64,000 nucleotides of DNA, taken from positions 1 to 64,000 of IMG/VR virus record IMGVR_UViG_3300050343_000266. One strand, given 5' to 3'. A program made the position numbers and the translations under genes. The DNA comes from a virus. Taxonomy: Duplodnaviria > Caudoviricetes. This document shows, piece after piece, positions 7,635 through 59,022 of this stretch. The stretch's first letter is position 1, and each line of letters starts with the position of its first letter. The notes under the pieces are model-generated. The model was given only the letters and a program-made list of their open reading frames with translations. It did no database searches and was not told where the DNA came from.

Positions 7635-8573
7635 ATGTCAGCAAAAATTTCAGGCGATTCCGTACGTTCCTATCTACGAGACATTGGGCGCATCCCACTT
7701 CTAGAACATGACGAAGAAATCATACTTGGTCGTCAAGTTCAACGAATGATGGAAATCAAAGCATGCGAAGATCTACTAAATAAGCCAAGTCAAGAGGACC
7801 TAGCTGTATCACTTGGAATCACAACAAAAGAACTAAAACGTGATATGCGTGATGGCAAAAAAGCCAAAGACAAAATGGTTACAGCAAACTTACGATTAGT
7901 TGTATCAGTAGCCAAGAAATATACAAAACGGAATATGGAATTGCTTGATATTATTCAAGAAGGAACAATTGGATTAGTGAGAGGTGTTGAAAAGTTTGAC
8001 CCTGGTCGTGGTTATAAGTTCAGTACTTATGCATATTGGTGGATCAGACAAGGCATTACGAGGGCGATTGCAGAAAAATCACGTGCAATACGCTTGCCGA
8101 TCCACGTCACTGAGAATCTCAACAAGCTTAAGAAAGCCCAGCGTGAATTAAGTCAGCTTAATGGGGAACTACCTAATGTCTTTCAGTTAGCTGAGCACTT
8201 AGAACTTACAGTTGAAGAGATCAAAGACTTGATGTGTAAGGCTAGACAACCTACTTCGCTCGAAATCAAGATTGGTGAAAATCGAGATACCGCATTGATT
8301 GATCTACTGGAAGACGAAAGTCAACTGCCTGACATGTTAATTGAACGTCAGTTCATTAAAGAAGATATTAGAGATTTAATTACAGAGCTGCCTGAGATGC
8401 AAGCTGCTGTAATCTCTATGCGCTATGGCATAGGTGAAGATATCTTGGAACCAATGTCTATGACAGCTATTGGTCAAGTTTTAAATATGAGCCGTGATCG
8501 CGTGCGGACTCTTGAGCAAAAAGCAGTAAGAGGACTCAGAGAACATAACCAGCAAATTAGTAATTATCTCTAA
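7635..8573 (+). CDS. RNA polymerase sigma-70 factor, cyanobacterial RpoD/group 2-like
   Basis: Region 1.2 DSVRSYLRDIGRIPLL; region 2 ANLRLVVSVAKKY and KFDPGRGYKFSTYAYWWIRQGITRAIA; region 4 MSRDRVRTLE. Confidence 0.95.
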   Translation: MSAKISGDSVRSYLRDIGRIPLLEHDEEIILGRQVQRMMEIKACEDLLNKPSQEDLAVSLGITTKELKRDMRDGKKAKDKMVTANLRLVVSVAKKYTKRNMELLDIIQEGTIGLVRGVEKFDPGRGYKFSTYAYWWIRQGITRAIAEKSRAIRLPIHVTENLNKLKKAQRELSQLNGELPNVFQLAEHLELTVEEIKDLMCKARQPTSLEIKIGENRDTALIDLLEDESQLPDMLIERQFIKEDIRDLITELPEMQAAVISMRYGIGEDILEPMSMTAIGQVLNMSRDRVRTLEQKAVRGLREHNQQISNYL

Positions 8574-30712: not shown

Positions 30713-31516
30713 ATGAATCAAATGAACGTGTTAACTCTGGCTGAAAAGACTAGGCGGCTTTTCAAGTCCAAAGTCAAAGACTCCACTTACAGCAACTGGC
30801 TTAAGGCAGTCGGACCTATTAGTAATCTGACGCTTGATCAGATTACAAATGATGTAGTTCTTGAACAGCGCATGTACTGGCTTGAACAAACCAGTGAAGG
30901 CACAGCAAAAACTCGGCTCAGCAGTCTAAAAGCAATCTGGAACAAAGCATTGATGATTCATTTGATTCCAGGCAACAAAGCAGATAACCCTTGGTTGACT
31001 GCTGACTATGGATTAACAATTCCAGAACGAGATCCTGAGTTTTATCCATGGGAATACTACGAGCAGTATCACAACGATCCTTACTTCGTCATTCTCTGGT
31101 TCACGGGTGCACGCATCGGTGAGGTTGCGGGGATGGATACAAAGATGATTGTCAGGGACGCAGGCATTCCATACTTTCAGTTCATAGATCAAGAGAACAG
31201 AGACATTAAAAACAAACCTTCAAAAAGAAAAGTTCCTATTCACCCTGCCTGTGAACACGTGCTTGATGACTTTAGGCAGTCAAAAGCAAAATGCCCTGGA
31301 GCAAGCTGGAGTGAAAACTTTAGAAAGAATATGCAGCTACCTGAATTTGAAGCAGCACATACCCTCAGGCATAGCTTTCACACTCGGTGTCGTGATGTAG
31401 AGATTGAAGAATATATGATTGATATCCTTACAGGCCATGCCAAAGCAAGCACTACTGCACAGTATGGCAAAACTCGCTTGCATTTATTAGAGAAGGCAAT
31501 CAAGAAGCTACGTTAA
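30713..31516 (+). CDS. Tyrosine recombinase/integrase
   Basis: TGARIGE (R), IKN (K), HTLRH (HxxR), LTGH and TAQYG (Y) are all present. Confidence 0.9.
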   Translation: MNQMNVLTLAEKTRRLFKSKVKDSTYSNWLKAVGPISNLTLDQITNDVVLEQRMYWLEQTSEGTAKTRLSSLKAIWNKALMIHLIPGNKADNPWLTADYGLTIPERDPEFYPWEYYEQYHNDPYFVILWFTGARIGEVAGMDTKMIVRDAGIPYFQFIDQENRDIKNKPSKRKVPIHPACEHVLDDFRQSKAKCPGASWSENFRKNMQLPEFEAAHTLRHSFHTRCRDVEIEEYMIDILTGHAKASTTAQYGKTRLHLLEKAIKKLR

Positions 31517-36633: not shown

Positions 36634-37935
36634 CTAGTGAGTAGCCGCCCAGTTCTCACCATGGTCAGCAGATGCAGCCATTGGTACGCGCAGGTTGTAG
36701 TACTTACCAGCTTCAGGCGCTGCTGCTTCTAACAATCGTTTCATACGATCAACCTCTGCAGGTACTACAGACATCTGTACTTCATCATGTACGTAAGCAC
36801 AGCGTGTGTAGTCACGGTCATAGGTAAGTCCCGCATCATCTAACATCTGCTGTCCAATTACCACCCATCGCTTGGAGATGATTGCTCCGGCAGACTGAAG
36901 TAAGAAGTTGGGACTACTGTGCTCAGCACGACAGAATATAGGACGCCCATCAAGGCCCCTAAGACGACCAGTTGAGCGAACTTTAAGTTTAACTGCATCT
37001 ACTAATGGCTCCAATCCAGGGATAGCGTCAAGGAATTTGCGGCGGAGTTCACCGCCAAGTGTTTTCTTCTGTGCATCTGACAGCTCAGGCTGCAGACTAT
37101 GGCCAAGCTTTACGTCACCTGCACCATATATAAACGCATACGTGAGCGTCTTGACTTGTGTACGTGTACATCCAACACGGTCAGCATTCTGCTGGTGGAT
37201 GTCACCGTTGACAACAACTTCAGCGAAGGAGCCCGAATCGAAAGCGGCTAGATAGTGCCCTAACAGGCGCAATTCAAGTCCTTCAAGGTCAGCTCCGACC
37301 ATTACATGACCAGGGTGTGGAACAAATAGTTCACGTGCCCACGGTGCACTTACCACCTGGCCCAAGTTGGGACCCCGATGCACATTTCTAGATGTTTGAG
37401 TAGCAAGAATGCAGCTGTGGTGGATACAGCTATCCCCCTCAATAGAGTTAAACCAAGAGTTGGTTCCCTCGGATAGCTGACCAAGCCACTTCTGTAATGT
37501 CAACAAACGGATAAACATCTCACATTCGTCATGCAGTTGCTGATTGCCAGTAGACAATGCAATGTCTCTTACTTCAGAGAGAGTTGCCTCATCAACTTTT
37601 GGCTTACCAGTCTCAGTAACTTTAGTGAAGCGTGCACCACGGAATGTTTGCAAAGCCCAGACAATATTTAGGCGTGACGTAGGGTTGAAGTCAGTCAAGC
37701 GCGTCATAGAAGCACCTGCTACATAGCCTTTCTTTTTATCAGCACGCTTTGGAGTAAATACCTTACCAGGTACGTACAGATAGATTGATTTGATTTTAAT
37801 TGTTAGATCATCAAACTCTTGCTGCAGTTTTGTGCGTACACGTACAGCAGCCTCAGTATCAAATCTAAATCCACTTGCTTCCTGCTGAGCCATAAGCTCG
37901 GCCATCCGCATTTCAAGTGCAACGTAATCAGGCAT
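36634..37935 (-). CDS. polA: DNA polymerase family A, polymerase domain only
   Basis: Motif A DLEGLELR, motif B RTQVKTLTYAFIYGAG (Tyr at the 762-equivalent position), motif C VHDE, PNLGQV. Confidence 0.95.
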   Translation of the reverse strand: MPDYVALEMRMAELMAQQEASGFRFDTEAAVRVRTKLQQEFDDLTIKIKSIYLYVPGKVFTPKRADKKKGYVAGASMTRLTDFNPTSRLNIVWALQTFRGARFTKVTETGKPKVDEATLSEVRDIALSTGNQQLHDECEMFIRLLTLQKWLGQLSEGTNSWFNSIEGDSCIHHSCILATQTSRNVHRGPNLGQVVSAPWARELFVPHPGHVMVGADLEGLELRLLGHYLAAFDSGSFAEVVVNGDIHQQNADRVGCTRTQVKTLTYAFIYGAGDVKLGHSLQPELSDAQKKTLGGELRRKFLDAIPGLEPLVDAVKLKVRSTGRLRGLDGRPIFCRAEHSSPNFLLQSAGAIISKRWVVIGQQMLDDAGLTYDRDYTRCAYVHDEVQMSVVPAEVDRMKRLLEAAAPEAGKYYNLRVPMAASADHGENWAATH

Positions 37936-38167
37936 CTTTTTCATCATCCTTGTTGAATCCAAACGTAAGTTCTTTCTCTTTAGCCGCCCTGTCTGCTCGG
38001 TTCTTGTGTCCAAGCTTTGCTACAGACTCCATAACCTTGAGACAGTCTTCTGTAGTAGAGCCATCAGGCATACGTGTGTGAACAATGTTAAAGAGCGGAA
38101 AGAAGATCTCCGCTGCCTCTGTCATTTCTTCAGAGTTGAGTGGATCTGATTTCTTAGGAATAGTCAT
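37928..38167 (-). CDS. Hypothetical protein between the exonuclease and polymerase halves
   Basis: 79 aa; overlaps both neighbours. Confidence 0.65.
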   Translation of the reverse strand: MTIPKKSDPLNSEEMTEAAEIFFPLFNIVHTRMPDGSTTEDCLKVMESVAKLGHKNRADRAAKEKELTFGFNKDDEKDA

Positions 38168-38684
38168 TCATTCTCCTTTGCAATAGTTCGTATAGCTTTA
38201 CTGTTACTTTTGTATCTTGGATGCAATAGTCAAGCATCTCAGGAGTGTAAGTAGACCAGTCATTACTGGTGTTCTTAGCAAAGTCTCCTTTGAAGCACTT
38301 TAATCTATAGCCCCATGCTTCTAGGCTATGTGAGCCGTAGAGCCTTTGTGGCATTCCAATAGGTCTTCTTTCAAAATCTCGCTCACTAATGTGAGGATAA
38401 TACAAGCGAGACAGAGTAAGTGTGTCAAGGTAAGAACCTCTTGGTGCAAACTCTGGAAACTGTTCTTTAAGAAGTGGTACATCATATCCCAGAATATTGT
38501 GGCCAATAAGAACATCAGCTCGCTCAAGGGCTTTAACCCCTTGAATAACTGCACGTTCTGGTTTGTAGTCAAAGACTTCTGCTTCTTCTACATTAGCGAT
38601 ATCGCGAATCACAATACAGTGAATCGTAGAACCGACACGTAGTAAGCCAGTACTTTCAATATCAAATAATAGTTCAGTTGTCAT
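38154..38684 (-). CDS. Stand-alone 3'-5' exonuclease domain of polA
   Basis: ExoI FDIESTG, ExoII GHNILGYD, HSLEAWG, ExoIII YCIQD. Confidence 0.9.
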   Translation of the reverse strand: MTTELLFDIESTGLLRVGSTIHCIVIRDIANVEEAEVFDYKPERAVIQGVKALERADVLIGHNILGYDVPLLKEQFPEFAPRGSYLDTLTLSRLYYPHISERDFERRPIGMPQRLYGSHSLEAWGYRLKCFKGDFAKNTSNDWSTYTPEMLDYCIQDTKVTVKLYELLQRRMNDYS

Positions 38685-41033: not shown

Positions 41034-41849
41034 TTAAAACTCTGATGTGGGATCTTCATCATTAGTTTCGTGATCTTCTGGTTGTTCAAACAAGCCTGGA
41101 GAATCTGGTTTCGTCTGACTGATGTGACGTCCGTTAAGCATATCTACCATGACAGCTTCAAAACGTTCATCAAACATTGAGTTTGGATTAAGGATAAGAT
41201 CTTCCCGTTGATCCAGTCCTTCAGACATAGCAATCTTCTCCTGCTCTTTCACTGCTTGCTGGATCATATACTCAGCAATTTGTTGCCTTAGTGTATGCAA
41301 CTCACATGCGAGCTCGAAACTTTCTAGATAGCTATCGTGGTCTACAAATACCCCAATATTTTGAGGAATAAGATGGAAGGGATTACAACAATACTTGTTC
41401 CCACAAGTAGTTTTAACACCAGTGAATCCGAGATCACCCCATGTAAACCACATCGCAACACGTTGAGGATGGTGCTGTGTCGATGATGAGATGCCATGCC
41501 TTCTCCATGCAAATTGAGGTTGCTTTGTTCGTTTGTTTATGCATCCGTTCCATTCCCAGCATTCATCTGGATCAGCCATGTCTACTAATGACCAGAACCT
41601 AAGAGCTTTTACTCGATTCTTTTTTAGTAACTTGGAAATATCAAAGGACATTCGCCCTTCACGTGCACCAGCTACGCAGCGAACACAAGCCTGGTGGCTG
41701 TCATAGCGCATGCTGTGGGAAGAGAATCTCCCAAGGGAATGTCCTGAGTAAAGGCAAAGCTCTCCCTCCTCAGCTGTATTAGACATCTGTTTGACGCGCC
41801 TGCCATAAGCATGACCGCCAACTTTTTTAGAAGGTTGAGCCTCAGCCAT
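41034..41849 (-). CDS. His-Me finger (HNH/I-PpoI-like Zn loop) domain protein, catalytic His apparently absent
   Basis: RFWSLVD...ECWEWNG...PQRVAM..TWG...GVKTTCGNKYCCNPFHL. Confidence 0.7.
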   Translation of the reverse strand: MAEAQPSKKVGGHAYGRRVKQMSNTAEEGELCLYSGHSLGRFSSHSMRYDSHQACVRCVAGAREGRMSFDISKLLKKNRVKALRFWSLVDMADPDECWEWNGCINKRTKQPQFAWRRHGISSSTQHHPQRVAMWFTWGDLGFTGVKTTCGNKYCCNPFHLIPQNIGVFVDHDSYLESFELACELHTLRQQIAEYMIQQAVKEQEKIAMSEGLDQREDLILNPNSMFDERFEAVMVDMLNGRHISQTKPDSPGLFEQPEDHETNDEDPTSEF

Positions 41850-42114: not shown

Positions 42115-44350
42115 TTAGAAGTCGTTCAAGATATGGGATTCATCTAAAGGATCATCTTTTGGACGTTGCCAAATACGTATCGATTTAGATTTACCATTAG
42201 CGTCTTTCCTGCTTGTTACCAAACGACGCCACCCCATTGACTGAAGTACATCAGCAACACGGCGTCCTTCACGACGTGACTGGTTGCGAGGGTCAAGCTC
42301 CAGTGCATGTGTAAGCACATCGGCTGCAGTGACCTCCTGCTTGATTGAAACGTAAGCTCCAATCTTGTCTAACCAAGGATCTGGGTCGCCAAATTCTTGG
42401 ATGTATTCAGAGATCGCAGCAATCTCACCACTGTTGAATTCATATCCAACGCCGCTACGGTAAGCATGTACCGCCGCTGCCCATAGACTATCTCGTTCTT
42501 GCTCTAATTGCTTCCAAGGAATCTGAAATCCTCCTGCAATTTCTAGTGGAACGAATCGTCTATTGCCAGTACTGTCAACAAGGAATTGATTCCTATTGGT
42601 AGTGCCAATCATCACAAAGCGACGTGGCAACTTCGATGGGAGTGATGCATATGGATAACGAACCTCATCCACTCGACTTGTGATTAGGTTCTTGAAGTTC
42701 TCAATGTTCCTGACATTGAAGTAATTATCGATCTCAGGTAAGCTCAAGCAACCATGCCATATGCAGGCGGTACTGCTCTTTCATCAGAGTCTCCAAGGGG
42801 ATGGTGATCTCTGCGAACAGGGCATCAGGTACCAAGTTTCTTGCAAACATGGACTTACCTACACCCTGAGCACCCACAAGAATGGGTAGCCAGGACATGG
42901 ATGCACCTGGGTTGTAGGCACGAGCTACTGCACCAATCATCATGCGTTGCATGGCAAGAGTTGCTAGCTGATGCTTGTTACCTAGGAAGACTTCTCCAAT
43001 ACGGTCCCAATCTTTATGCGGGATCGCATGTGCTGCACAACTATCAAGGTACCGAGTGATCGGGCAGTAACCGTTTTTACCTGCTGCGTACTGAATAGCT
43101 GACTTGATACGCGGCTCAGGAATGAAGACCCCGTACTCACAAGCAAGCTTGGTAGTCATGATGTCTAGGTCATTACCTTCGAGCTGAACAACTTTCCCGT
43201 TGGGGTCGTCATACTCAATGGCATTCGTAAGTCTGTTCTTACGTAGACCAGTCAAGATTGCTTTGACTTTATCTACGTCAGCTTCACGTTCTTTGGCAGC
43301 ATCATCACTGCTTTTCTTTGGTCGTCCACGTTTGGCAACCTTTTTGGAATCCGGTAAGGGTTCCGGTTCAAACTGCATAGTTTCTCCTTTTGCTTGTCGT
43401 ATAACCTCTTCAAAACTGACCAAAGGATCAGTCTCTGTATAACCAACTGCTCCACCAGATGCACCAAAGCGCACATCACGGGGAAGCTTACTAGTCCAAT
43501 TAGGATCTTGCTTTTTTGCAAGCGAATACAGTTTAGTATGCCCAGCATATTTGCCGAGACCTTTCCACTTAAACGCACGAATGTTTTCTTCTTTGTGACC
43601 GTGGTGGCCACGAATGACCCAGTCAACCCAGTCATCAAACAGAACGCCACCTACACCAGCACAAGCTGCCATGACAGGCACGTAGTAAGACTCGTACTCA
43701 TCGTCGTCAGACGGACGTAGGAACTCTCGAAGGAGCCACTGACATCGCCTTACGTCAATATCCTCACAGTCTGAATGTACAAACTCTGTAGGTTCGTCGT
43801 AATCAATGTCAGTCAGTAGGAATTCAGGTACCAATGCACCATCATTAAGACGATGACGGGTAGCTGTATTGCCATACCAAAGGCGCTCAGGCTTTTGTCC
43901 ACAGTTATCTTTGAGATCATCGAGCTGCAGATCGGCAAGCAAACGGTTAACGATTAACCAGTAAGCACCACGATGCTGTCTAGAAGATTCAAGATCAATT
44001 TCTAATGCAAAGATCGCACGGAATCTGTGCTCTTCTTCTGTGTGACTTGCAGAAGTATAAGTAGCAAGGCACCACTCTTTAGCAGTTGTGGTTTCCCAAA
44101 ACTTATCAAGAGTAGTGTCGCCATCAAAGTCAATGACAATGATGTTGCTACCAGCTGCATTATCTGCACGCCTGTGTCGATCAATAAAATGAGTGGCGCA
44201 CCAGCCGTAGCCATGCTCCACCCATCCAAGTAGCCAGTCAATGCTGACTAATACATTTGACCAACCACGAGCAACCAGTTGTGGGTTGCTTTTATTTTGG
44301 CAGTTCTTATTGACTGCTATCTTCAGTATCTTTTGCACTCTCCATCTCAT
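42115..44350 (-). CDS. Primase (AEP/PriCT-like) fused to a VapE-family helicase; one apparent indel near 42740
   Basis: IDFD and YTSASH...RFR primase motifs; Walker A GAQGVGKS; WLLEL(P)EID split across frames; IGTTN and DSTGNRRF. Confidence 0.9.
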
Positions 44351-51769: not shown

Positions 51770-52113
51770 TCTGGATGTGCGTAAGTGTAGGCATCGAGTG
51801 TTGCTTGGAGGTGCTCAATAATTGAGTTAGCTCCCACGAATCGTTCAACAGATTCTTCTCTATAGTCACAATCTTCATCGCCGTCTTCATCTAGTCGGCA
51901 GGAAACCTCCTCATGAACGACAACGAGTGTTGGTGACAGTTCCACCGATAACTCCTCCGCCAACGCTGTAGGGCCGCCTGAGGGCGCTTTAAGAGGGACA
52001 AAGTCCAACTCAGCCGCTTCGTTTTCCGTGAGAGTTTTGACGTGGTCCTTGAGACGATCGCAAGGAGCACACCCGTCTTGGGTAAAAACATAGAGCTTGT
52101 AGTTTTTCATCAT
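51766..52113 (-). CDS. Thioredoxin/glutaredoxin-like protein
   Basis: FTQDGCAPCDRLK and cis-Pro SPTLVV. Confidence 0.85.
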   Translation of the reverse strand: MMKNYKLYVFTQDGCAPCDRLKDHVKTLTENEAAELDFVPLKAPSGGPTALAEELSVELSPTLVVVHEEVSCRLDEDGDEDCDYREESVERFVGANSIIEHLQATLDAYTYAHPE

Positions 52114-52117
52114 TGTT

Positions 52118-52426
52118 TTAGGCAGGATTACCATCAGTGAAATAGAAACCACCGATACAGTTCTCGTTATTTGATATTACTAAATGTCGTGCATGTTGAT
52201 AACATCTCATACCCATATGATAGGAAATCATGACGGGATCACCGACAATTACGGTGTCTAATCGGTCGCACATAATTAAACGAACTGCAGGTGGTTTGCG
52301 TTTGTACTGAATCTCTGCGTCATAGGCAAGGTGGGAGTCTTCGTTGAGTGTGTTTGGGTTGAAAACAGTTCGAACTCTGGGAGCAGTCACAGGGATTGCT
52401 TCCATTTCAGACATTAGTTTTTTCAT
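52118..52426 (-). CDS. Hypothetical protein
   Basis: ORF in a tightly packed run. Confidence 0.5.
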   Translation of the reverse strand: MKKLMSEMEAIPVTAPRVRTVFNPNTLNEDSHLAYDAEIQYKRKPPAVRLIMCDRLDTVIVGDPVMISYHMGMRCYQHARHLVISNNENCIGGFYFTDGNPA

Positions 52427-52620
52427 TCGTCGGCAAAGGTTATATCAATTAGTTGGGATTCTTCGAAGAGCAGCTCTTGTACAGCACCGCTCTCGATCTC
52501 TTCTTCGCTGAAATGCCAGTCTGCAAGGTTCTCTAAGTAGTAGTTAACCTCGTCATGGATATTGTTATCCAATGCACAGCGCAGGAATGTACGGAAATGA
52601 TCTCGTTGTACTTCAGTCAT
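52423..52620 (-). CDS. Hypothetical acidic protein
   Basis: Resembles its upstream neighbour (Q...FR.FL...L). Confidence 0.5.
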   Translation of the reverse strand: MTEVQRDHFRTFLRCALDNNIHDEVNYYLENLADWHFSEEEIESGAVQELLFEESQLIDITFADE

Positions 52621-52865
52621 GATCTTCCAAAAGGGTCAGGTGTCCATTGAAATGAAATATTTGAAGCATCTTCTATAAATGCTTCTTCGAGTTCCTCATA
52701 TCCCTTGTCAGAAAGGTCATCCTGTAAATGAGGTGAGTTGTCTATGTAGACAGGAATGAGTTGTTCTATTTGACGCATGAGTGAGTTTGCAAGAAATGAT
52801 CGAAACCGTGTTTGTTCTTGTACTGTAAGTTTCATTCGTTTGTAATTAGACGGTATGTTGTACAA
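52617..52865 (-). CDS. Hypothetical acidic protein
   Basis: ORF in a tightly packed run. Confidence 0.5.
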   Translation of the reverse strand: MYNIPSNYKRMKLTVQEQTRFRSFLANSLMRQIEQLIPVYIDNSPHLQDDLSDKGYEELEEAFIEDASNISFQWTPDPFGRS

Positions 52866-52971
52866 CGCTTGCTGTTAGCCACACGTTGCTTGAGCAAAGC
52901 CAATTCTTTTTTGGCAAGTTCTTCATCCTCAAAGGATTCTTTGGTGACCCAGACTTGTTGTTGAATGTGAA

Positions 52972-53247
52972 TCATGAGTTAGGCAGGTGCAGTTTTAGCG
53001 GAGGTAGATACTTTTTCTCAGCAAGGTACACTTCGACTTCCTGGCGCTGATCGCTAGTGAGATAACCAAACATGATGTTGAGTATCTGGTTGAGATAGTG
53101 CGTAGGAAATTCTGGTGAGTCTTGGGCCAGTGCTGCGTGGCACAGGAGTACGACATCGAGCACGTCATAGTCGGGCAGTTTGTCAACGTTCATTTGTAAA
53201 TTTGATGTATTCGGTGGGATTTTCTGCAAAGTAATCAAGAAGTTCAA
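52972..53247 (-). CDS. Hypothetical protein
   Basis: ORF; the true start may be the internal Met (MNVDKL). Confidence 0.45.
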   Translation of the reverse strand: MNFLITLQKIPPNTSNLQMNVDKLPDYDVLDVVLLCHAALAQDSPEFPTHYLNQILNIMFGYLTSDQRQEVEVYLAEKKYLPPLKLHLPNS

Positions 53248-53349
53248 GTAGCCGACATGCTGTTATGTGCTCCCCATCAATAGATAATTGGAGGAGCACA
53301 CTGTTGAGGTAACGTCTAGCAGCCAGCAGTTCGGTAACTGCTCGTGATG

Positions 53350-53580
53350 TCATTCGTCTTCTTCTTCTTCCTCTTCTTTCTTTTGTAGCTGCAATTGAGT
53401 TTGAGCATATTCAGAAACACAGCCATCGACAATCCATTCAAGAGTCTCAGCTTCGAGTTGTTCTAATGCCATTGCACAGACAGAACATCGTATAGCCATT
53501 GTCATTGTTGGATAGTTATCGATGAGATAAGCGTCAATATCAAAGATGTATTCACGCTCGTAGTCAGTTTTTACAGGCAT
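53350..53580 (-). CDS. Hypothetical acidic protein
   Basis: 76 aa with a poly-E tail. Confidence 0.5.
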   Translation of the reverse strand: MPVKTDYEREYIFDIDAYLIDNYPTMTMAIRCSVCAMALEQLEAETLEWIVDGCVSEYAQTQLQLQKKEEEEEEDE

Positions 53581-54227
53581 TAGAAGTTCTCCTCTTCTGT
53601 GTCAGCAGGCAATGCACGTAAGTCATCTAGGACAGTGACTTCAGTAGGAACACCGGATATCTCTGCAGACAGGATTTGTACTGCATCTGTAACGCTTCTG
53701 ATGATGCCTTCCTTGTCTCTGTCAGAACGCAAGTCGCGAAGCTGCTCATACATATGATTGTCAGAAACACGCTCGCCATCTAGATAGATGTTGGCGAAGG
53801 AAGGACGCTTGCCTTGATCACCACGCTTGGACCAGAAGGTGAATGGTGTGTTGAAGTCATACATTCCTGACCCCATGATTCCCATCAGAGCTGTGACGAC
53901 AGCTTGTGACCACATGGTCTCGACACCAGAAGTGAAGCAAAGCTTGATACCATTAGGACCACGCAGCTTGAGATTTAGCTTTGATGCTTTGAATGTACCA
54001 ATGTCATGAACAATTTCAATGCCATAGCAGACAACATTTTTGAATGATTGTAGTGGCTTGCCGTTTGCTTGATTAAGAAGAGCAATGGGCTTGGAGTCTT
54101 TGTAGAAGAAAAATACAGCGTCAGATTCTTTCATTACGCCAACTCCAATAAGTAGGTCGTAATCAACTGGCGCAGATAGACCACCAGTAAACTCAGAAAT
54201 AATTGAAGCAGGATTAGCGATTGTCAT
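53580..54227 (-). CDS. Hypothetical protein
   Basis: 215-aa ORF. Confidence 0.65.
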   Translation of the reverse strand: MTIANPASIISEFTGGLSAPVDYDLLIGVGVMKESDAVFFFYKDSKPIALLNQANGKPLQSFKNVVCYGIEIVHDIGTFKASKLNLKLRGPNGIKLCFTSGVETMWSQAVVTALMGIMGSGMYDFNTPFTFWSKRGDQGKRPSFANIYLDGERVSDNHMYEQLRDLRSDRDKEGIIRSVTDAVQILSAEISGVPTEVTVLDDLRALPADTEEENF

Positions 54228-54290
54228 AGTAAAAAGTAAGTGAATGCCATATAGGCAATAGAAAATAGAGGACCCATTAGGGTCCGTATA

Positions 54291-54455
54291 TCAGCGGTTT
54301 CGAGCAGGATCTAAAGCCATTAGCCGATTGGCTTGTGCTTGGCAGCGATCAGCTACAAGTTGATAAACCTCTTGTGGGTTATCAGCTTCATGCTCTTGAA
54401 TTAATTGCACCAGGAAATGCATAAACAATCCTGTTAGCTCTCTTGTATTTGTCAT
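54291..54455 (-). CDS. Small hypothetical protein (54 aa, not in the ORF track)
   Basis: MTNTRELTGLFMHFLVQLIQEHEADNPQEVYQLVADRCQAQANRLMALDPARNR. Confidence 0.5.
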   Translation of the reverse strand: MTNTRELTGLFMHFLVQLIQEHEADNPQEVYQLVADRCQAQANRLMALDPARNR

Positions 54456-54458
54456 TCG

Positions 54459-54626
54459 TCAGGCTGCTGCTAGTTCTCCTGCCATCTCAGCCAACTTGGC
54501 TGTAGCACGGCATTGAAGGACGATCCAAGCAAGCTCTCCTGATAGTTGATTTGTGTCGCAGAAATATTCGATTGTGTCGTCTATCAAACCTTCCAGCTCG
54601 GACAGCTGGTCGCGTGATAATTGCAT
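54459..54626 (-). CDS. Small hypothetical protein (55 aa, not in the ORF track)
   Basis: MQLSRDQLSELEGLIDDTIEYFCDTNQLSGELAW... Confidence 0.55.
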   Translation of the reverse strand: MQLSRDQLSELEGLIDDTIEYFCDTNQLSGELAWIVLQCRATAKLAEMAGELAAA

Positions 54627-54713
54627 TCATGAGAGATATAAGTGTTCAGGCCCATCGCCGGGCACAACCTAAATATAGCGCCCATTAGGGCGCAATAGCT
54701 ATGACATTTATAC

Positions 54714-55543
54714 TTATTTTTTCAGGTTGTAATCAATTGATTTTCTTCTGCGAGCAAACTTCCCATCTTTCATTAATCCTTGGTACACATCAGCTTTAGA
54801 GGCGGCTCTTTCAGTTCCATAATAATTAACTGACGAACTTGGAGAAGGTGACGGAGATGGATTAGGGAAAGGAGATGGAGATGGAGATGGACTAGGAGAA
54901 GGCGATGGAGAAGGATTAGGAGAAGGCATTGGTATATCACTACTGCTAGGCATAGGAATTATTGGCATAGCAATAGTTGGCATACTCTTAGGAGGGGTAA
55001 TACGCGGCATAGGCATACGCCCAGGCATAGGCATACGCCCAGGCATAGGCATCTTCATAGGCATATTCATACCTGGCATCTTCATAGGCATATTCATGCC
55101 TGGCATATTCATAGGCATATTCATAGGCATATTCATAGGCATATTCATGGCATATTCATAGGCATATTCATAGGCATTCATAGGCATATCCATACCCGGC
55201 ATCTTCATAGGCATAAACATAGGCATGAACATTACCTTAGGCATAGGCATATTCATACCTGGCATCTTCATAGGCATGAACATTACCTTAGGCATAGGCA
55301 TAGGCATAGGCATAGGCATGCGCATAGGCATAGGCATGCGCATTACCACAGGCATAGGCTTGGGTTGAGGCTTTGGTGCAGGCTGAGGTGAAGGTGAGGT
55401 GAAGGTGAAGGTGAAGGTGAAGGTGAAGGTCTAGGTGAAGGACGTGGTGAAGGTCTAGGCGATGGCCGTGGTGAAGGTTTAGGTTGAGGTCTAGGCATAG
55501 GCATGCTCATACCCATACCCATCATCATGTTTCTTCTACCCAT
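54714..55543 (-). CDS. Met-Pro repeat protein flanked by (SP)n tracts; ORFs 55343-55543 and 54714-55355 join if one base is restored near 55397
   Basis: MGRRNMMMGMGMSMPMP, (PSPR)n, (SP)n, (MPMN/MPMK/MPGM)n, (SP)n. Confidence 0.7.
55005..55340 (-). repeat. Tandem ATGCCT / ATGAATATGCCT repeats
   Basis: Repeated AGGCAT and ATAGGCATATTC units on the + strand. Confidence 0.9.
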
Positions 55544-55546
55544 TGC

Positions 55547-55930
55547 CTATTCCTCAAATGTTGTATCTCCCACTCCGTAATCTAAAGTTAATTCGGAGCC
55601 TGCGGAAATTGTTTTAATGGCAAAAAATACCATACATTCATTGTAATCATCAATGTAATAGTTGATATTGCCTCCATCATCCGTATGGTTATACAGTGCT
55701 GCATGACCAAAGCCAATTACAGAGTATTCATCAGAGAATGCATAACAATGTGAATGTATTGTTGCTTCTTCTGTCTCTTGGTAAGGCAGATAGAGCATAG
55801 GAGACTCTTCTATTAGATCTCCTTCTTCAAAGTCTTCATTAGTGAAAACTCCATATCGATGTATGTTTGATTTTTTAATACATAGACCTGGACTGGTAAA
55901 TAAATCAGTCTTATTAATATTTGGATGCAT
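55547..55930 (-). CDS. SET-domain protein lysine methyltransferase
   Basis: IKKSNIHRYGVFT...GDLIEE, LYNH...N, FFAIKTISAGSELTLDYG. Confidence 0.9.
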   Translation of the reverse strand: MHPNINKTDLFTSPGLCIKKSNIHRYGVFTNEDFEEGDLIEESPMLYLPYQETEEATIHSHCYAFSDEYSVIGFGHAALYNHTDDGGNINYYIDDYNECMVFFAIKTISAGSELTLDYGVGDTTFEE

Positions 55931-55932
55931 AT

Positions 55933-55970
55933 AAAAAAAGTAGCTCCTTATGATTTTAAAGGAACTACTT
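55933..55970 (-). terminator. Rho-independent terminator between the basic-protein gene and the SET gene
   Basis: Minus strand AAGTAGTTCCTT...AAGGAGCTACTT followed by a T-run. Confidence 0.65.
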
Positions 55971-56010
55971 ACATTTAATGACTATAAAAAAGTTAATTAA
56001 AGGCTTAATA

Positions 56011-56361
56011 TTAACGACGACGACGAGTAGCCCGACGAGTAGCGGCAGCAGCTTGACGTGTTGACCTACGAGCTGCACGCCGTTGCGCTGCAGCAGCTTG
56101 GCCACCAGCTGTGTTGCGTGTTTTTACACGGCTAGAGTTTTTGCCGTAAGTAGTACCGCCGCGCATCATTGATTTAACTGCGCCACCAGTTGCAGTTTTG
56201 CGTGTTGCTGATTTGACTGCGCCACCTGTTGTACGACGACTAGTTCGAACTGAACCATCAGCATTAGTACGCTTGCGTTGAATCGTACCGTCTTTACGCT
56301 TGCGTTCTTGAATGGTTGCTCCTCGTTTAGTACGTCGCGTACTAGTAGCTCGTTTCATCAT
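56011..56361 (-). CDS. Arg/Lys/Thr-rich protamine- or histone-tail-like protein
   Basis: 116 aa, strongly basic, with a duplicated TGGAVKS. Confidence 0.7.
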   Translation of the reverse strand: MMKRATSTRRTKRGATIQERKRKDGTIQRKRTNADGSVRTSRRTTGGAVKSATRKTATGGAVKSMMRGGTTYGKNSSRVKTRNTAGGQAAAAQRRAARRSTRQAAAATRRATRRRR

Positions 56362-56412
56362 TGTTCAATACAATTAAGTCTCCTTAAATTGTATCAACTA
56401 GATAATACTTAA

Positions 56413-56604
56413 CTACCACATTCCTGGAATCATTTGTCCAGTCACTGCATAGCTTCCAAGTGCTGCGATAATACCCAGCATTGCCAAACGGCCATTTAGT
56501 TTTTCAGCTTTAGTGTTGTGGTCCATGGTGATCTCCATTACTTGCATTTGTGGTTCTTTGGCGTAGATATTTGTTCTTCCGCCGTCTTCAATAATTGTAG
56601 TCAT
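56413..56604 (-). CDS. hli: High-light-inducible protein
   Basis: AEKLNGRLAMLG and TGQMIPGMW. Confidence 0.95.
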   Translation of the reverse strand: MTTIIEDGGRTNIYAKEPQMQVMEITMDHNTKAEKLNGRLAMLGIIAALGSYAVTGQMIPGMW

Positions 56605-56605
56605 T

Positions 56606-56637
56606 TCTGTAATGTTTTGTTAAGCAACTTAAGTATA
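56606..56637 (-). promoter_or_regulatory. hli promoter: -10 TATACT followed by an HLR1 (RpaB)-like direct repeat
   Basis: Minus strand TATACT-taagttgc-TTAACAAA-ac-ATTACAGA just before the ATG; imperfect match to (G/T)TTACA(T/A)(T/A)-N2 repeats. Confidence 0.45.
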
Positions 56638-56736
56638 GCCTCGAATTCTTGATAACGAGGATTTCTAATTGAGATATTATTCTGCATATAGAGAACTACT
56701 GCAGCACGAACATCATTCAGTTGTTCTTGAGTTAAG

Positions 56737-57147
56737 TCATTCATTGGTATGTCGAGCAATGTATGCAATGAGCTGCTTTAGATGCTTAGGACTATCAGAA
56801 ACAATCCCTAAGACGATATTACAATCTTTGCAAAGCAGTTCACGAACGTTGTTGGTTACATGGTCGTGATCCACACACCATTGGTTGTGCTTTCCTCTAG
56901 GTTCTGAAGAACCGCAGCAGGCGCATCTGGAGCTTTGATTAGACACCATCCCATTGAAAGTATCAAGAGTGATGCCGTAAGTACGCCGATAGTGTAAATC
57001 TCTTGCTCGCTCTGGGTCTCGGGTAGCCTTAACCCTTGCTTTAGTACACTCTTTACATTCATTCTTTCTTTTTAATTTTTTAGCTTTGTCAGCATAGAAC
57101 TCAGATAAATCTTTTGTTTCTTGACATATACTACATATTCTTTCCAT
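56737..57147 (-). CDS. Endonuclease VII-family homing endonuclease (F-CphI-like)
   Basis: CSIC...CKEC, YGIT, CACC, VDHDH, VRELLCKDCN; immediately downstream of psbA. Confidence 0.85.
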   Translation of the reverse strand: MERICSICQETKDLSEFYADKAKKLKRKNECKECTKARVKATRDPERARDLHYRRTYGITLDTFNGMVSNQSSRCACCGSSEPRGKHNQWCVDHDHVTNNVRELLCKDCNIVLGIVSDSPKHLKQLIAYIARHTNE

Positions 57148-57198
57148 TAAAAAAGGCCCACACTCGTGAGCCTATCTAAACTAATTGTTAGTTGTGGA

Positions 57199-58281
57199 TT
57201 AACCGATAGAAGGTGCAGTTAGAGCTACAGAAGTAGTCTCAACAGCTGCTAAGTCTAAGGGGAAATTGTGAGCGTTACGTTCATGCATCACTTCCATTCC
57301 AAGACCTGCGCGGTTCAGAATGTCAGCCCAGGTGTTGACAACGTGTCCGCCGTGAACGATTGACTGGTTGAAGTTGAAGCCGTTCAAGTTGAAGGCCATA
57401 GTAGAGACACCTAGTGCGGTGAACCAGATACCTACGACCGGCCAGGCCGCTAAAAAGAAATGCAGTGAGCGACTGTTGTTGAAGCTGGCATATTGGAAGA
57501 TGAGACGACCAAAGTAACCATGAGCAGCAACGATATTATATGTTTCCTCTTCTTGGCCAAACTTGTAACCGTAGTTCTGTGACTCGGTTTCAGTTGTCTC
57601 GCGAACGAGTGAAGAAGTAACAAGTGAGCCATGCATAGCAGAGAACAAAGAGCCACCGAATACACCGGCAACGCCGAGCATATGAAACGGATGCATCAAG
57701 ATGTTGTGCTCTGCCTGGAAAACCAGCATGTAGTTAAACGTGCCAGAGATACCAAGAGGCATAGCGTCAGAGAATGAACCCTGACCGAATGGATAAACGA
57801 GGAAGACTGCGGATGCTGCTGCAACAGGTGCAGAGTACGCAACGCAGATCCATGGGCGCATACCTAACCGGTAGCTAAGTTCCCATTCACGTCCCATGTA
57901 AGCGAAGATACCGATAAGGAAGTGGAAGACAACAAGTTGGAATGGGCCTCCGTTATAGAGCCACTCGTCCAGTGAAGCCGCTTCCCAGATTGGGTAAAAA
58001 TGCAGACCGATTGCGTTTGAAGACGGGACAACTGCTCCTGAAATAATGTTATTTCCGTAAAGGAGCGATCCAGCAACTGGTTCACGTATGCCATCGATAT
58101 CTACAGGTGGTGCGCCTACGAAGGCGATAATGAAACAGATGGTTGCAGCTAGCAACGTAGGAATCATCAAGATGCCAAACCAGCCCACATAGAGGCGGTT
58201 GTCAGTTGATGTAACCCACTTGCAAAACTGCTCCCAATTGGACTGAACGCTAGATGCGCCAGTAAAAATTGTTGAAGCCAT
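57199..58281 (-). CDS. psbA: Photosystem II D1 protein
   Basis: [36 protein letters not shown]; Gln130; uninterrupted 360 aa. Confidence 0.99.
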
Positions 58282-58600
58282 TAAATTAATGCGGTGTTTT
58301 GTTTATTTGGGTTAGTACTCGCGTGTGATTAACGCTACCTAACAATCATACCTTGATTGTTATGAAATAAACACAGTATATATACTTAAAGGTCGAGATC
58401 TTGGGTTCTAATTTTATAGTCTCGTTGGAAATCTCTAGATTGCTTGCGTTCTTTAAGCTGGTGTTCGAGATGTGAGGAAAATCCTTTCGTAGTTGGATGC
58501 TTAATAGTCTTTGACATTCTTTTCTCCTATTTAGTTTTAGTTAGGAGCAGGGAATGCTCCCAACTATGTTTAATATATCAGCGAACACACACTGATGAGA

Positions 58601-58945
58601 TTAAATATAAGTAAAGCTTACATAATCTACACCTGGGTGTGTAAGTCCGATTGCTAATGCTGCTCCGTACGATAAATCAAGCTCACGAGCACCAATGTAG
58701 GGGCCGCGATCATTGATACGTACATCCACGCATCCTTGGTAACAAACGCGTAATTTTGTACCGAAAGGTAGCGTCTTATGTGCGGCGGTATGTCCGTACA
58801 TATTGTAAGTTTCGCCGTTGGCTGTTGTCCTGCCGTGGAAATAGCTACCGTACCAGGAAGAAAGCATGGAGCCTCCTGCCTGGACGGATGTGCCGAGGCT
58901 GAGCATTGCAACAGCAGCGAGAGTACTAATAGATTTAATAAACAT
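58601..58945 (-). CDS. RlpA-like DPBB lytic transglycosylase with a signal peptide
   Basis: SWYG..FHGRTTANGE, TAAHKTLPFGT, VRINDRGPY, LDLS. Confidence 0.9.
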   Translation of the reverse strand: MFIKSISTLAAVAMLSLGTSVQAGGSMLSSWYGSYFHGRTTANGETYNMYGHTAAHKTLPFGTKLRVCYQGCVDVRINDRGPYIGARELDLSYGAALAIGLTHPGVDYVSFTYI

Positions 58946-59022
58946 TTAGTTGATAACATTATTTTCTAAACCTTAAGCTAACTAATAGGGAGCACAATTA
59001 AGTACTCCCAATCGTATAACTA

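Follow-up and report, generated by a model that had tools for sequence, protein, structure and literature searches.

A minimal SET-domain gene and a downstream gene with a Met-rich head recur together in uncultured phages

The vSET protein (A612L) of PBCV-1 is a minimal viral SET protein that methylates histone H3 at lysine 27 (H3K27), forms a homodimer and is packaged in the virion. No Met-rich protein coupled to it is known to us. A gene of the same kind is encoded in the virus record IMGVR_UViG_3300050343_000266, of whose 72,332 bases the first 64 kb (64,000 nucleotides) are referred to here as the window. It is directly followed by a partner gene whose product begins with a Met-rich head, and the pair of SET and Met-rich head is a cassette widespread in uncultured phages. 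It was not found described in the literature searched: the search returned no study of phage SET proteins or of Met-rich partners, most subscription journals lying outside its coverage.

Like vSET (1n3j, 3kma), the window protein is virus-encoded, consists of a SET core of ~120 amino acids (aa) only, lacks a post-SET Zn cluster and shows the same GxGVF, NH and ExxxxYG motifs. Unlike vSET, with which it shares ~26% sequence identity, it comes from a virus whose host is a bacterium without histones, and H3K27 therefore cannot be its target. S. pombe Set7 (5h6z) and P. falciparum PFL0690c (4rz0) are the top profile and fold matches to the phage SET; these, however, are eukaryotic chromatin enzymes, and their gene context is not comparable. 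According to the accessible part of PMC3980110, Go1-SET of Methanosarcina methylates MC1-alpha, and cpnSET of Chlamydia methylates Hc1. The locus resembles the Go1-SET/MC1-alpha and cpnSET/Hc1/Hc2 systems, as far as that part describes them, in having a small SET in a histone-less cell and a small basic protein encoded just upstream. It differs from the MC1 and Hc1 cases in that its basic protein has no detectable homology to either and accompanies SET in a single clade. Cellular minimal-SET loci, unlike the phage loci, mostly lack a Met-rich partner.

The preliminary description of this DNA, made from its letters alone, had noted a compact SET protein with NH and ELxxDY motifs, and this is borne out. 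The protein matches the Pfam SET profile (PF00856) over positions 2-105 of 105 with an E-value of 8.6e-11 (42.6 bits against a cut-off of 22.4), and the same match was obtained from a search of the virus record itself. The motifs are HRYGVF (GxG-type), YNH and ELTLDYG. In an alignment of 65 SET sequences N81, E113 and Y118 are invariant and G27 and H82 are kept in at least 90%; all five residues are retained across all SET clades. We take them to serve in cofactor binding and catalysis, Y118 presumably being the catalytic tyrosine. The AlphaFold2 (AF2) model is confident, with a predicted local distance difference test (pLDDT) of 89.5 and a predicted template modelling score (pTM) of 0.81. Foldseek returned 334 PDB matches to it at E<=0.001, and all the matches listed are SET-domain methyltransferases. 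The closest solved structure is vSET 3kma (template modelling score by target 0.91, root-mean-square deviation 1.7 over 108 columns), followed by S. pombe Set7. A SET profile searched against PDB sequences found 5h6z (3.6e-32) and 1n3j (1.1e-30), and among predicted viral structures the model matches SET proteins of giant viruses and of "uncultured Caudovirales". The chain ends 9 residues after DYG, whereas the remote cellular relatives L015-L018 have a C-terminal CxC..C tail. No PHROG family was assigned. The gene is thus real and a new member of the known minimal vSET-like kind, and its product would be an active lysine methyltransferase dependent on S-adenosylmethionine (SAM).

The SET profile of the window clade found 2,191 relatives at E<=0.001 among 1.84 billion representative proteins. 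Since only three of them reach E<=1e-30, and two of these (P0004 and P0006) come from the window clade, this clade is tight and isolated. Some relatives have a different build: P0007, P0017, P0020, P0046, P0061 and P0131 are 750-890 aa long and hold 5-8 SET-like stretches, and about ten of 250-300 aa hold two in tandem. Searches of GenBank phages with the locus (blastn) and the SET protein (tblastn) returned nothing. Among 50,697 GenBank phage records there was no match to the window SET, and the SETs of L026 and L045 match only two records of one 735-kb uncultured phage. The window-clade SET was not found in 185,579 species genomes. Scans of viral contigs with the single protein and with the close alignment were also empty, the set being one that may exclude near relatives of the window record.

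As the preliminary description had stated, the SET stop lies 3 nt from the ATG of a Met-Pro repeat gene: TAG is followed by GCA and by the partner ATG at 55543, in the frame of SET, and the Shine-Dalgarno sequence of the partner, GAGGAA, lies within the final SET codons. One metagenome scan gave 13 close loci with SETs 74-100% identical to that of the window. A Met-rich ORF (open reading frame) begins 3 nt after SET in all ten with downstream room, and it is intact in all five that reach its end (L002, L006, L007, L011 and L012), at 243, 261, 262, 293 and 384 aa. Between near-identical strains the length changes by whole in-frame repeat units. The partner in this clade is almost all head, made of Met-Pro repeats and Ser-Pro/Lys-Pro spacers with a conserved tail of 45 aa; conservation is confined to the N-terminus and to the final ~45 residues, which end in DYNLKK. 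Its composition is 21-28% Met, 20-30% Pro and 11-16% K+R, with almost no acidic residues and no Cys; in L002, L006 and L007 His is absent as well. Each protein has 43-64 P..P pairs in (K/S/R/Q-P)n tracts. With Pro at every second position, these recall the X-Pro spacers of the TonB type, a resemblance of composition only; unlike TonB, the partner has no TonB domains, and no homology was found. In the AF2 model of the L006 partner (pLDDT 53, pTM 0.13) the only helices are residues 235-244 and 252-255, and the only confident stretch, residues 20-50, has no regular secondary structure; the protein is accordingly predicted to be disordered except for short C-terminal helices. The C-terminal 52 aa found nothing in a set of 5.8 billion proteins, nor did the partner in the ESM Atlas. 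The repeat region was also considered as non-coding repeat DNA. This was rejected: five divergent loci keep the Met frame, and no other, open for 243-384 codons and differ in length by in-frame changes only, and high-GC phages encode Met-rich heads by quite different DNA.

The pairing is found far from the window clade. A scan of viral contigs with an alignment of the nearest minimal SETs gave 124 relatives, and 80 loci were analysed, with SETs 33-43% identical to that of the window. Of 58 ORFs that begin right beside the SET stop and reach 100 aa or more, 51 have five or more Met among residues 1-60; of the 420 other ORFs in these loci only 4 do. A looser count over 79 loci (one was not scored) gave a Met-rich partner in 54, no downstream ORF in 13, another ORF in 10 and no room in 2. 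In most of these loci a gap of 3-6 nt (28-112 nt in two subclades) parts the SET stop from a long ORF with a Met-rich head, which opens with MAMNMS followed by [A/G]-M-S units, with MGKRNMMGMMGMGMSMM or with MGGGMGG. In the SET tree such pairs occupy at least five clades with long branches between them: the window clade, clade B (3 loci), two small clades and a 46-row clade of ~60% GC, the largest, called here the high-GC clade. The gene settings vary accordingly. The pair follows a tail-spike-like gene in the high-GC clade, stands beside genes of ribonucleotide reductase (RNR) in clade B, lies near and before terminase in the two small clades, and is found beside psbA and hli in the window clade. 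The partner bodies vary too, from fibrous Q/A/N-rich repeats and ER-rich repeats, both without a family, to SHOCT-like repeats in clade B and the Met-Pro repeats of the window clade. The N-terminus MG[RK]RNMM..GMGMSM is common to the window clade and clade B, whose SETs are only ~35% identical. The coupling of SET and partner extends far beyond the shared ancestry of one phage clade.

Cellular loci served as a control. Three of 80 cellular minimal-SET loci have a Met-rich downstream ORF; two of the three, L164 and L165, have typical heads and SETs that come nearest to those of phages (63% and 51% identity), and the third is an ORF of 51 aa, which leaves one spurious case in 78 when L164 and L165 are set aside. 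A DNA pattern for MGMGMSM gave nine stretches in viral contigs. Only two are N-terminal, both in known clade B loci with SET upstream, and the rest are internal chance matches.

The partner itself offers a natural comparison of presence and absence. Its non-repetitive core, taken from the high-GC clade and searched against viral contigs with SET called by profile, gave 64 new loci, of which 49 contain SET and 15 do not. A Met-rich head is present in all 49 loci with SET (two start calls corrected) and in none of the 15 without it; the SET-less homologues have a short Lys/Pro-rich head (MGKKKKSKQEAPPPP.. or MGGSPSKPK..) on the same core. On the tree of the core the state of SET and head needs six changes, at least three of them forced by well-supported branches. 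L141 (no SET) and L149 (SET and Met head) share their synteny, and over 565 aa their bodies are 85% identical. These comparisons show that SET and Met-rich head come and go together, as a conserved cassette.

The heads of the high-GC clade are nearly free of lysine: 46 distinct heads hold 4 K in 3,907 residues. In the same heads 515 of 644 Met residues have Ser after them, and 390 have Ala before them. Lysine is absent from ten of 32 complete partners (602-899 aa, not de-duplicated) and numbers 1-6 in the others; high-GC partners contain 0-0.9% K, against 1.6-9.9% in neighbouring proteins. The long partners of L022-L095 likewise have 0-6 K in 600-980 aa (3 K in ~900 aa in L039, L041 and L042), and their Arg is normal or high (31-104 R). 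Since the partners of the largest clade are nearly or wholly Lys-free, methylation of partner lysines cannot be the general reason for the pairing, although it may occur in the window clade and in clade B. The preliminary description had supposed a methylation module carrying its own substrates, with the lysines of the Met-Pro repeats among them. Its coupling of SET with the repeat gene holds in at least five clades and is right in spirit; the repeat lysines as a general logic do not hold, and as a substrate idea this is probably wrong in general. The mechanism is at the stage of a proposal.

Methionine can occupy the place of lysine in SET enzymes. In the accessible part of PMC5030085, H3K9M traps Clr4 and G9a in a SAM-dependent manner, and Met fills the lysine channel in human PRC2-K27M. 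As in the Lys-to-Met histones (H3K9M, K27M and K36M), Met would stand in the place of lysine in the phage heads, which are nearly Lys-free [A/G]-M-S arrays. The two differ in that the histones offer a single Met in a defined context, whereas the heads are Met-rich arrays of 50-170 aa with varying flanks and putative binding. It is tentatively proposed, as a possible reading that falls short of probable, that the cassette consists of a minimal vSET-like SET and a translationally coupled partner whose disordered Met-rich head docks the SET as a Lys-to-Met pseudo-substrate. The head would be the element that works with SET, binding the enzyme with its Met side chains in the lysine channel of SAM-loaded SET. 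The partner would tether, sequester or deliver the acidic SET and would not itself be methylated on lysine as a substrate. Methylation would fall on other proteins, the basic protein with its AVKS and TRKT sites being a candidate in the window clade and host proteins elsewhere. This reading is favoured because chemistry is known to connect SET domains with methionine in one way only, the Lys-to-Met effect. The acidic SET and the cationic window-clade partner also contrast in charge. In the high-GC clade the unit [A/G]-M-S parallels the K-S of H3 motifs and the AVKS of the basic protein; the M-P-M-x of the window shows no such parallel. SET was modelled in complex with SAM and residues 1-70 of the partner; the score, 0.00, counts neither for nor against binding. 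A wider form of the proposal, which we regard as unlikely, is a portable cassette in which the head is grafted onto any downstream protein as a natural multivalent Lys-to-Met pseudo-substrate capturing SAM-loaded SET, so as to tether, silence or deliver it, e.g., on a virion or ejected protein; in its bolder variant the Met sulfur would be methylated to give a polycation.

Several points weigh against the pseudo-substrate proposal. The binding of the head to SET would follow by analogy, and the residues flanking Met differ between clades (M-P in the window clade, A-M-S in the big clade, M-G in others), so that no single pseudo-substrate motif emerges. Lysine depletion is not universal, clade B partners having 14-15% K and those of the window clade 3-10% K. 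No fusion of SET with a Met-rich stretch was found: in 148 representative SET relatives, 40 consecutive residues never hold more than 4 Met. Expression of the pair is weakly supported, by contigs of one metatranscriptome run, X15, which may hold DNA; these come from a relative and cover parts of SET, the basic gene and hli, and the partner 3' end, and as contigs they do not mark where transcripts end. Adjacency of SET and head means that one recombination moves both, and their co-occurrence is proof of linkage, and of function only through its persistence. The nearest outgroup, clade C, comprises 16 loci with an orphan SET and no Met-rich ORF within 1.5 kb (downstream of SET there is no ORF in 13, another ORF in 2 and no room in 1), and six loci have SET beside a giant structural gene of the phrog_358 type in place of the Met-rich partner. 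SET does not, therefore, need the partner. Unrelated genes also flank five remote SETs (26-31% identical) that the metagenome scan returned. The gene neighbourhood, whose conservation in related phages the preliminary description had put forward as a check, is conserved as regards the Met-rich partner, which recurs in the clades named above, and is not conserved around clade C and the remote SETs.

The loci without a partner have features of their own. In clade C (including L023, L029, L036, L043-L046, L050, L054, L057, L063, L064, L066 and L096) SET lies on the strand opposite its neighbours and ends in an acidic tail (..DYGYEDDECDFGDY). The clade C phage contigs, up to 106 kb long, share the HNH endonuclease and integrase genes of the window, and SET has therefore moved within the phage group of the window and clade C. 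In L030, L033, L040 and L047 (also L087 and L099) SET stands between ORFs of 1,234 and 834 aa, which correspond to positions 673-1411 and 1421-2055, i.e., consecutive parts, of phrog_358, a family without assigned function. It looks as if SET had been inserted into, or were splitting, a giant structural gene before the head-tail adaptor.

These loci lend some weight to a reading in which SET and partner are not physically coupled. SET would be a host-takeover enzyme, the partner would do something unrelated, e.g., serve as a disordered spacer or as a virion protein that is fibrous or ejected, and the two would keep company only by sharing one mobile cassette and one transcript. SET does occur without a partner in clade C and beside other genes in 6-8 loci, and the partner bodies are unrelated between clades. 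One partner family follows a tail-spike-like gene and has 83 matches among its relatives, all labelled hypothetical, 5 of which carry the tail-fibre chaperone domain PF13884. Two observations are left unexplained, however: within one family the Met-rich head goes with SET in every case (49/49) and the Lys/Pro-rich head with its absence (15/15), and the Met-rich head sits on non-homologous bodies in five SET clades against the background of 4/420. We consider this reading rather doubtful.

Another reading is that SET methylates its neighbours, i.e., the partner lysines (MPMK, MPKV, KP tracts or the DYNLKK tail) and/or the basic protein, which may bind nucleic acid, and thereby tunes charge, binding or stability. 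The window-clade partners hold 8-28 Lys, and K235, K244, K260 and K261 are invariant in the five sequences. In the basic protein AVKS occurs two times and TRKT is present; an acidic SET faces two basic neighbours, and small prokaryotic SETs are reported to act on basic chromosomal proteins in the accessible part of PMC3980110. Against this stand the partners of the largest clade, with little or no Lys to methylate, and the behaviour of the basic gene and of the hairpin next to it.

The 116-aa R/K-rich protein with the peptide RRTTGGAVKSATRKTATGGAVKS is encoded upstream, as had been described. The likeness of this peptide to histone H3 had been suggested as well. The motif is present; statistically it is weak. 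The motif belongs to an internal duplication, TGGAVKS occurring twice, and the pattern RK[ST]..GG.VK, which was chosen post hoc, arose in 11 of 100,000 composition-preserving shuffles of the protein, RK[ST] alone in 42,588 of 100,000. Searches gave no Pfam family at E<=0.1, no PHROG and no PDB sequence at E<=10 (phmmer), and the protein has no detectable homology to H1/Hc1, HU, MC1, the histone fold, nucleoid proteins or any family. Twelve of the 13 close loci encode a basic protein (104-234 aa) ahead of SET, with a sequence that is nearly unalignable between subclades. In the remaining one, L014, the gene is missing and hli abuts SET, and in no other clade examined does a basic gene adjoin SET. 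It is clade-specific and hypervariable and lies outside the conserved cassette. The preliminary description had named it as a possible substrate, and in this clade it is a fair candidate, given the precedent of small SETs acting on basic chromosomal proteins; a role in RNA binding would also fit, in view of its Arg/Ala-rich C-terminus and of the hairpin that follows it directly. In L012 (246-935) and L013 (222-926) the upstream basic protein carries GMGMRGLMKGMGMRG repeats, similar to the GMNMGMRG repeats in the second half of the partner, so both genes flanking SET there encode Met-rich cationic disordered proteins.

The terminator-like hairpin reported between the basic gene and SET is real: a stem-loop with a U-run lies within a 91-nt stretch that folds at -17.5 kcal/mol (z -3.3). 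A simple terminator scan missed it, its loop limit being 8. It is kept with pairing-preserving changes of the arms in L002, L004, L009 and L011-L014 and is weaker in L008 and L010; over 52000-59000 no Rfam family was found at E<=0.1. It looks like a terminator, an attenuator or a 5' structure of the SET-partner transcript. A role as terminator of the basic gene was rejected: the hairpin stays before SET in L014, which lacks that gene. After the partner, two further hairpins are kept in L002, L006, L007, L011 and L012, with a compensatory change of G-C to C-G in the first stem. Since the first hairpin stays with SET in L014 and the hairpins after the partner are conserved, the unit runs in the order hairpin, SET, partner, terminator (Table 1). 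The hairpin divides the basic gene from the SET-partner unit and, together with the lysine content, makes methylation of the neighbours improbable as the explanation of the pairing.

Table 1. Features of the window discussed in the text
Feature	Coordinates	Strand	Description
Two GC-rich hairpins	54650..54693	-	After the partner gene; first (54693-54678) followed by a T-rich run; terminator-like
ORF-B, 3' piece of partner	54714..55355	-	213 aa; MPMx repeats, second (SP)n tract, conserved C-terminal ~45 aa ending DYNLKK
ORF-A, 5' piece of partner	55343..55543	-	66 aa; Met-rich N-terminus MGRRNMMMGMGMSMPMP, then (R/S/K-P)n
Frame break	55391..55443	-	CCTTCA hexamer tract, +23 nt relative to close relatives; one 5-nt unit at ~55395-55399
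SET ORF	55547..55930	-	127 aa; minimal SET domain, acidic (pI 4.29), no pre- or post-SET domains
Hairpin and U-run	55931..55970	-	12-bp stem, 9-nt loop; U-run ends 2 nt before SET ATG; 3' arm has AAGGAG, Shine-Dalgarno-like
Basic protein	56011..56361	-	116 aa, low-complexity; 26 R, 10 K, 19 T, 19 A; pI 12.0; 31% R+K
Sigma factor gene	7635..8573		phrog_351, E 2.8e-80
Integrase gene	30713..31516		Tyrosine-type, phrog_1
DNA polymerase I, polymerase ORF	36634..38013
DNA polymerase I, exonuclease ORF	38154..38684
HNH-like ORF	41034..41849		Between the DNA polymerase I block and the primase-helicase block
Primase-helicase, first ORF	42734..44350
Primase-helicase, second ORF	42115..42747

In the window copy the partner is not the intact protein of ~276 aa that had been described: there are two ORFs of 66 and 213 aa in different frames. 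Compared with L006 and L007, which are 96% identical, the CCTTCA (Ser-Pro) tract is longer by 23 bases, one short of four whole units; hexamer arrays were reported by the program TRF at 55006-55359, 55386-55441 and 54840-54915. A second anomaly at ~55149-55177 encodes the out-of-frame peptide NAYEYAYEYA, after which the frame is restored; this patch is absent in L006 and L007 and arises from two nearby losses, of 2 bases and 1 base, in repeat units. These two changes, and the different repeat numbers of near-identical strains (243, 261 and 293 aa), could mean that the gene is truly broken in this genome, either as a pseudogene or as a slippage-prone contingency locus in its off state, so that the module would be non-functional or phase-variable here. 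Such a reading is very unlikely. The frame is kept in 10 of 10 relatives and in both independent runs, from two other studies, whose contigs span the tract (X4, record 24, and X6, record 29), each in the 23-nt-shorter form, and the contigs of the best-holder run X1 break at 55384-55443, as expected of assembly trouble in a hexamer array. A contig from X4 lacks 55126-55182 and has 3 different bases in their place. In the window copy the break of the frame is probably an assembly artefact or a minority or rare variant, since all relatives and two independent samples are in frame.

The junction with SET has a further feature. A single TAG separates SET and partner in one frame in 10 of 10 loci of the window clade and 3 of 3 of clade B (L091, L092 and L094), and read-through of this TAG would give a SET-partner fusion in these two clades. 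The gap in the high-GC clade is 4, 5 or 6 nt, and the in-frame arrangement is thus not general.

A function of the Met-rich protein that is independent of SET was also considered, namely metal binding or the buffering of oxidants, by Cu(I) thioether motifs or as a sink of reactive oxygen species in a photosynthetic host. Motifs of the MxM type can bind Cu(I). The dense M-P-M-x repeats of the window-clade partner, with 21-28% Met, contain MxM/MxxM motifs and would be putative metal-binding sites, and the gene lies beside the photoprotection genes psbA and hli. The pairing, however, is also found in ~60% GC phages with structural-gene contexts and no photosynthesis genes, no Cys or His accompanies Met in L002, L006 and L007, and the linkage to SET is left unexplained, which makes this function highly improbable as an account of the cassette. 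Least probable of all is a modification of the head by SET off lysine, at the N-terminal amine or at the Met sulfur to give sulfonium, turning a neutral head into a polycation in place of the Lys-rich one: SET-less homologues do have a KKKK head where the SET-bearing ones have a Met-rich, Lys-free head, and residue 2 is always small (G, A, P or S) in the partner heads listed, but we know of no SET enzyme that methylates an N-terminal amine or a Met sulfur. PMC5030085, in its accessible part, presents Lys-to-Met histones as traps and mentions no methyl transfer to Met.

The virus that carries the locus is a marine cyanophage of an uncultured type, assigned on the gene content of the window, including psbA and hli. 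CheckV puts the completeness of the record at 91%. Structural genes in the window encode terminase, a major head protein and tail-fibre or tail-spike proteins; replication genes encode a split DNA polymerase I, a primase-helicase, RNR and ThyX. An hli-like gene and endonuclease VII are also encoded. The psbA gene is 83% identical to Synechococcus phage psbA, and from this likeness we infer a picocyanobacterium as the host. The SET locus sits in a minus-strand block of replication and host-takeover genes, beside psbA and hli. The sigma factor and integrase genes (Table 1) suggest a temperate cyanophage with its own transcription control. Both DNA polymerase I and primase-helicase are encoded as two ORFs, and an HNH-like ORF lies between the two blocks. 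In the relative L010 (4958-6704) psbD and two further small genes, absent from the window, stand between psbA and the hli-SET region. The block of auxiliary metabolic genes around psbA is modular.

In eukaryotes the marks on chromatin are written chiefly by SET enzymes, whose role in bacterial viruses is essentially unexplored. The cassette described here is a cheap experimental handle on that role, as it consists of two small genes, for a SET and for a Met-rich, often Lys-free protein. If the pseudo-substrate proposal is true, Lys-to-Met trapping, so far the work of mutations in cancer, would turn out to serve regulation in nature too, and the heads would be a family of natural peptide binders of SET domains. 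For the biology of cyanophages, the locus would mean that a protein-methylation module has been added to the host-takeover region beside psbA and hli.

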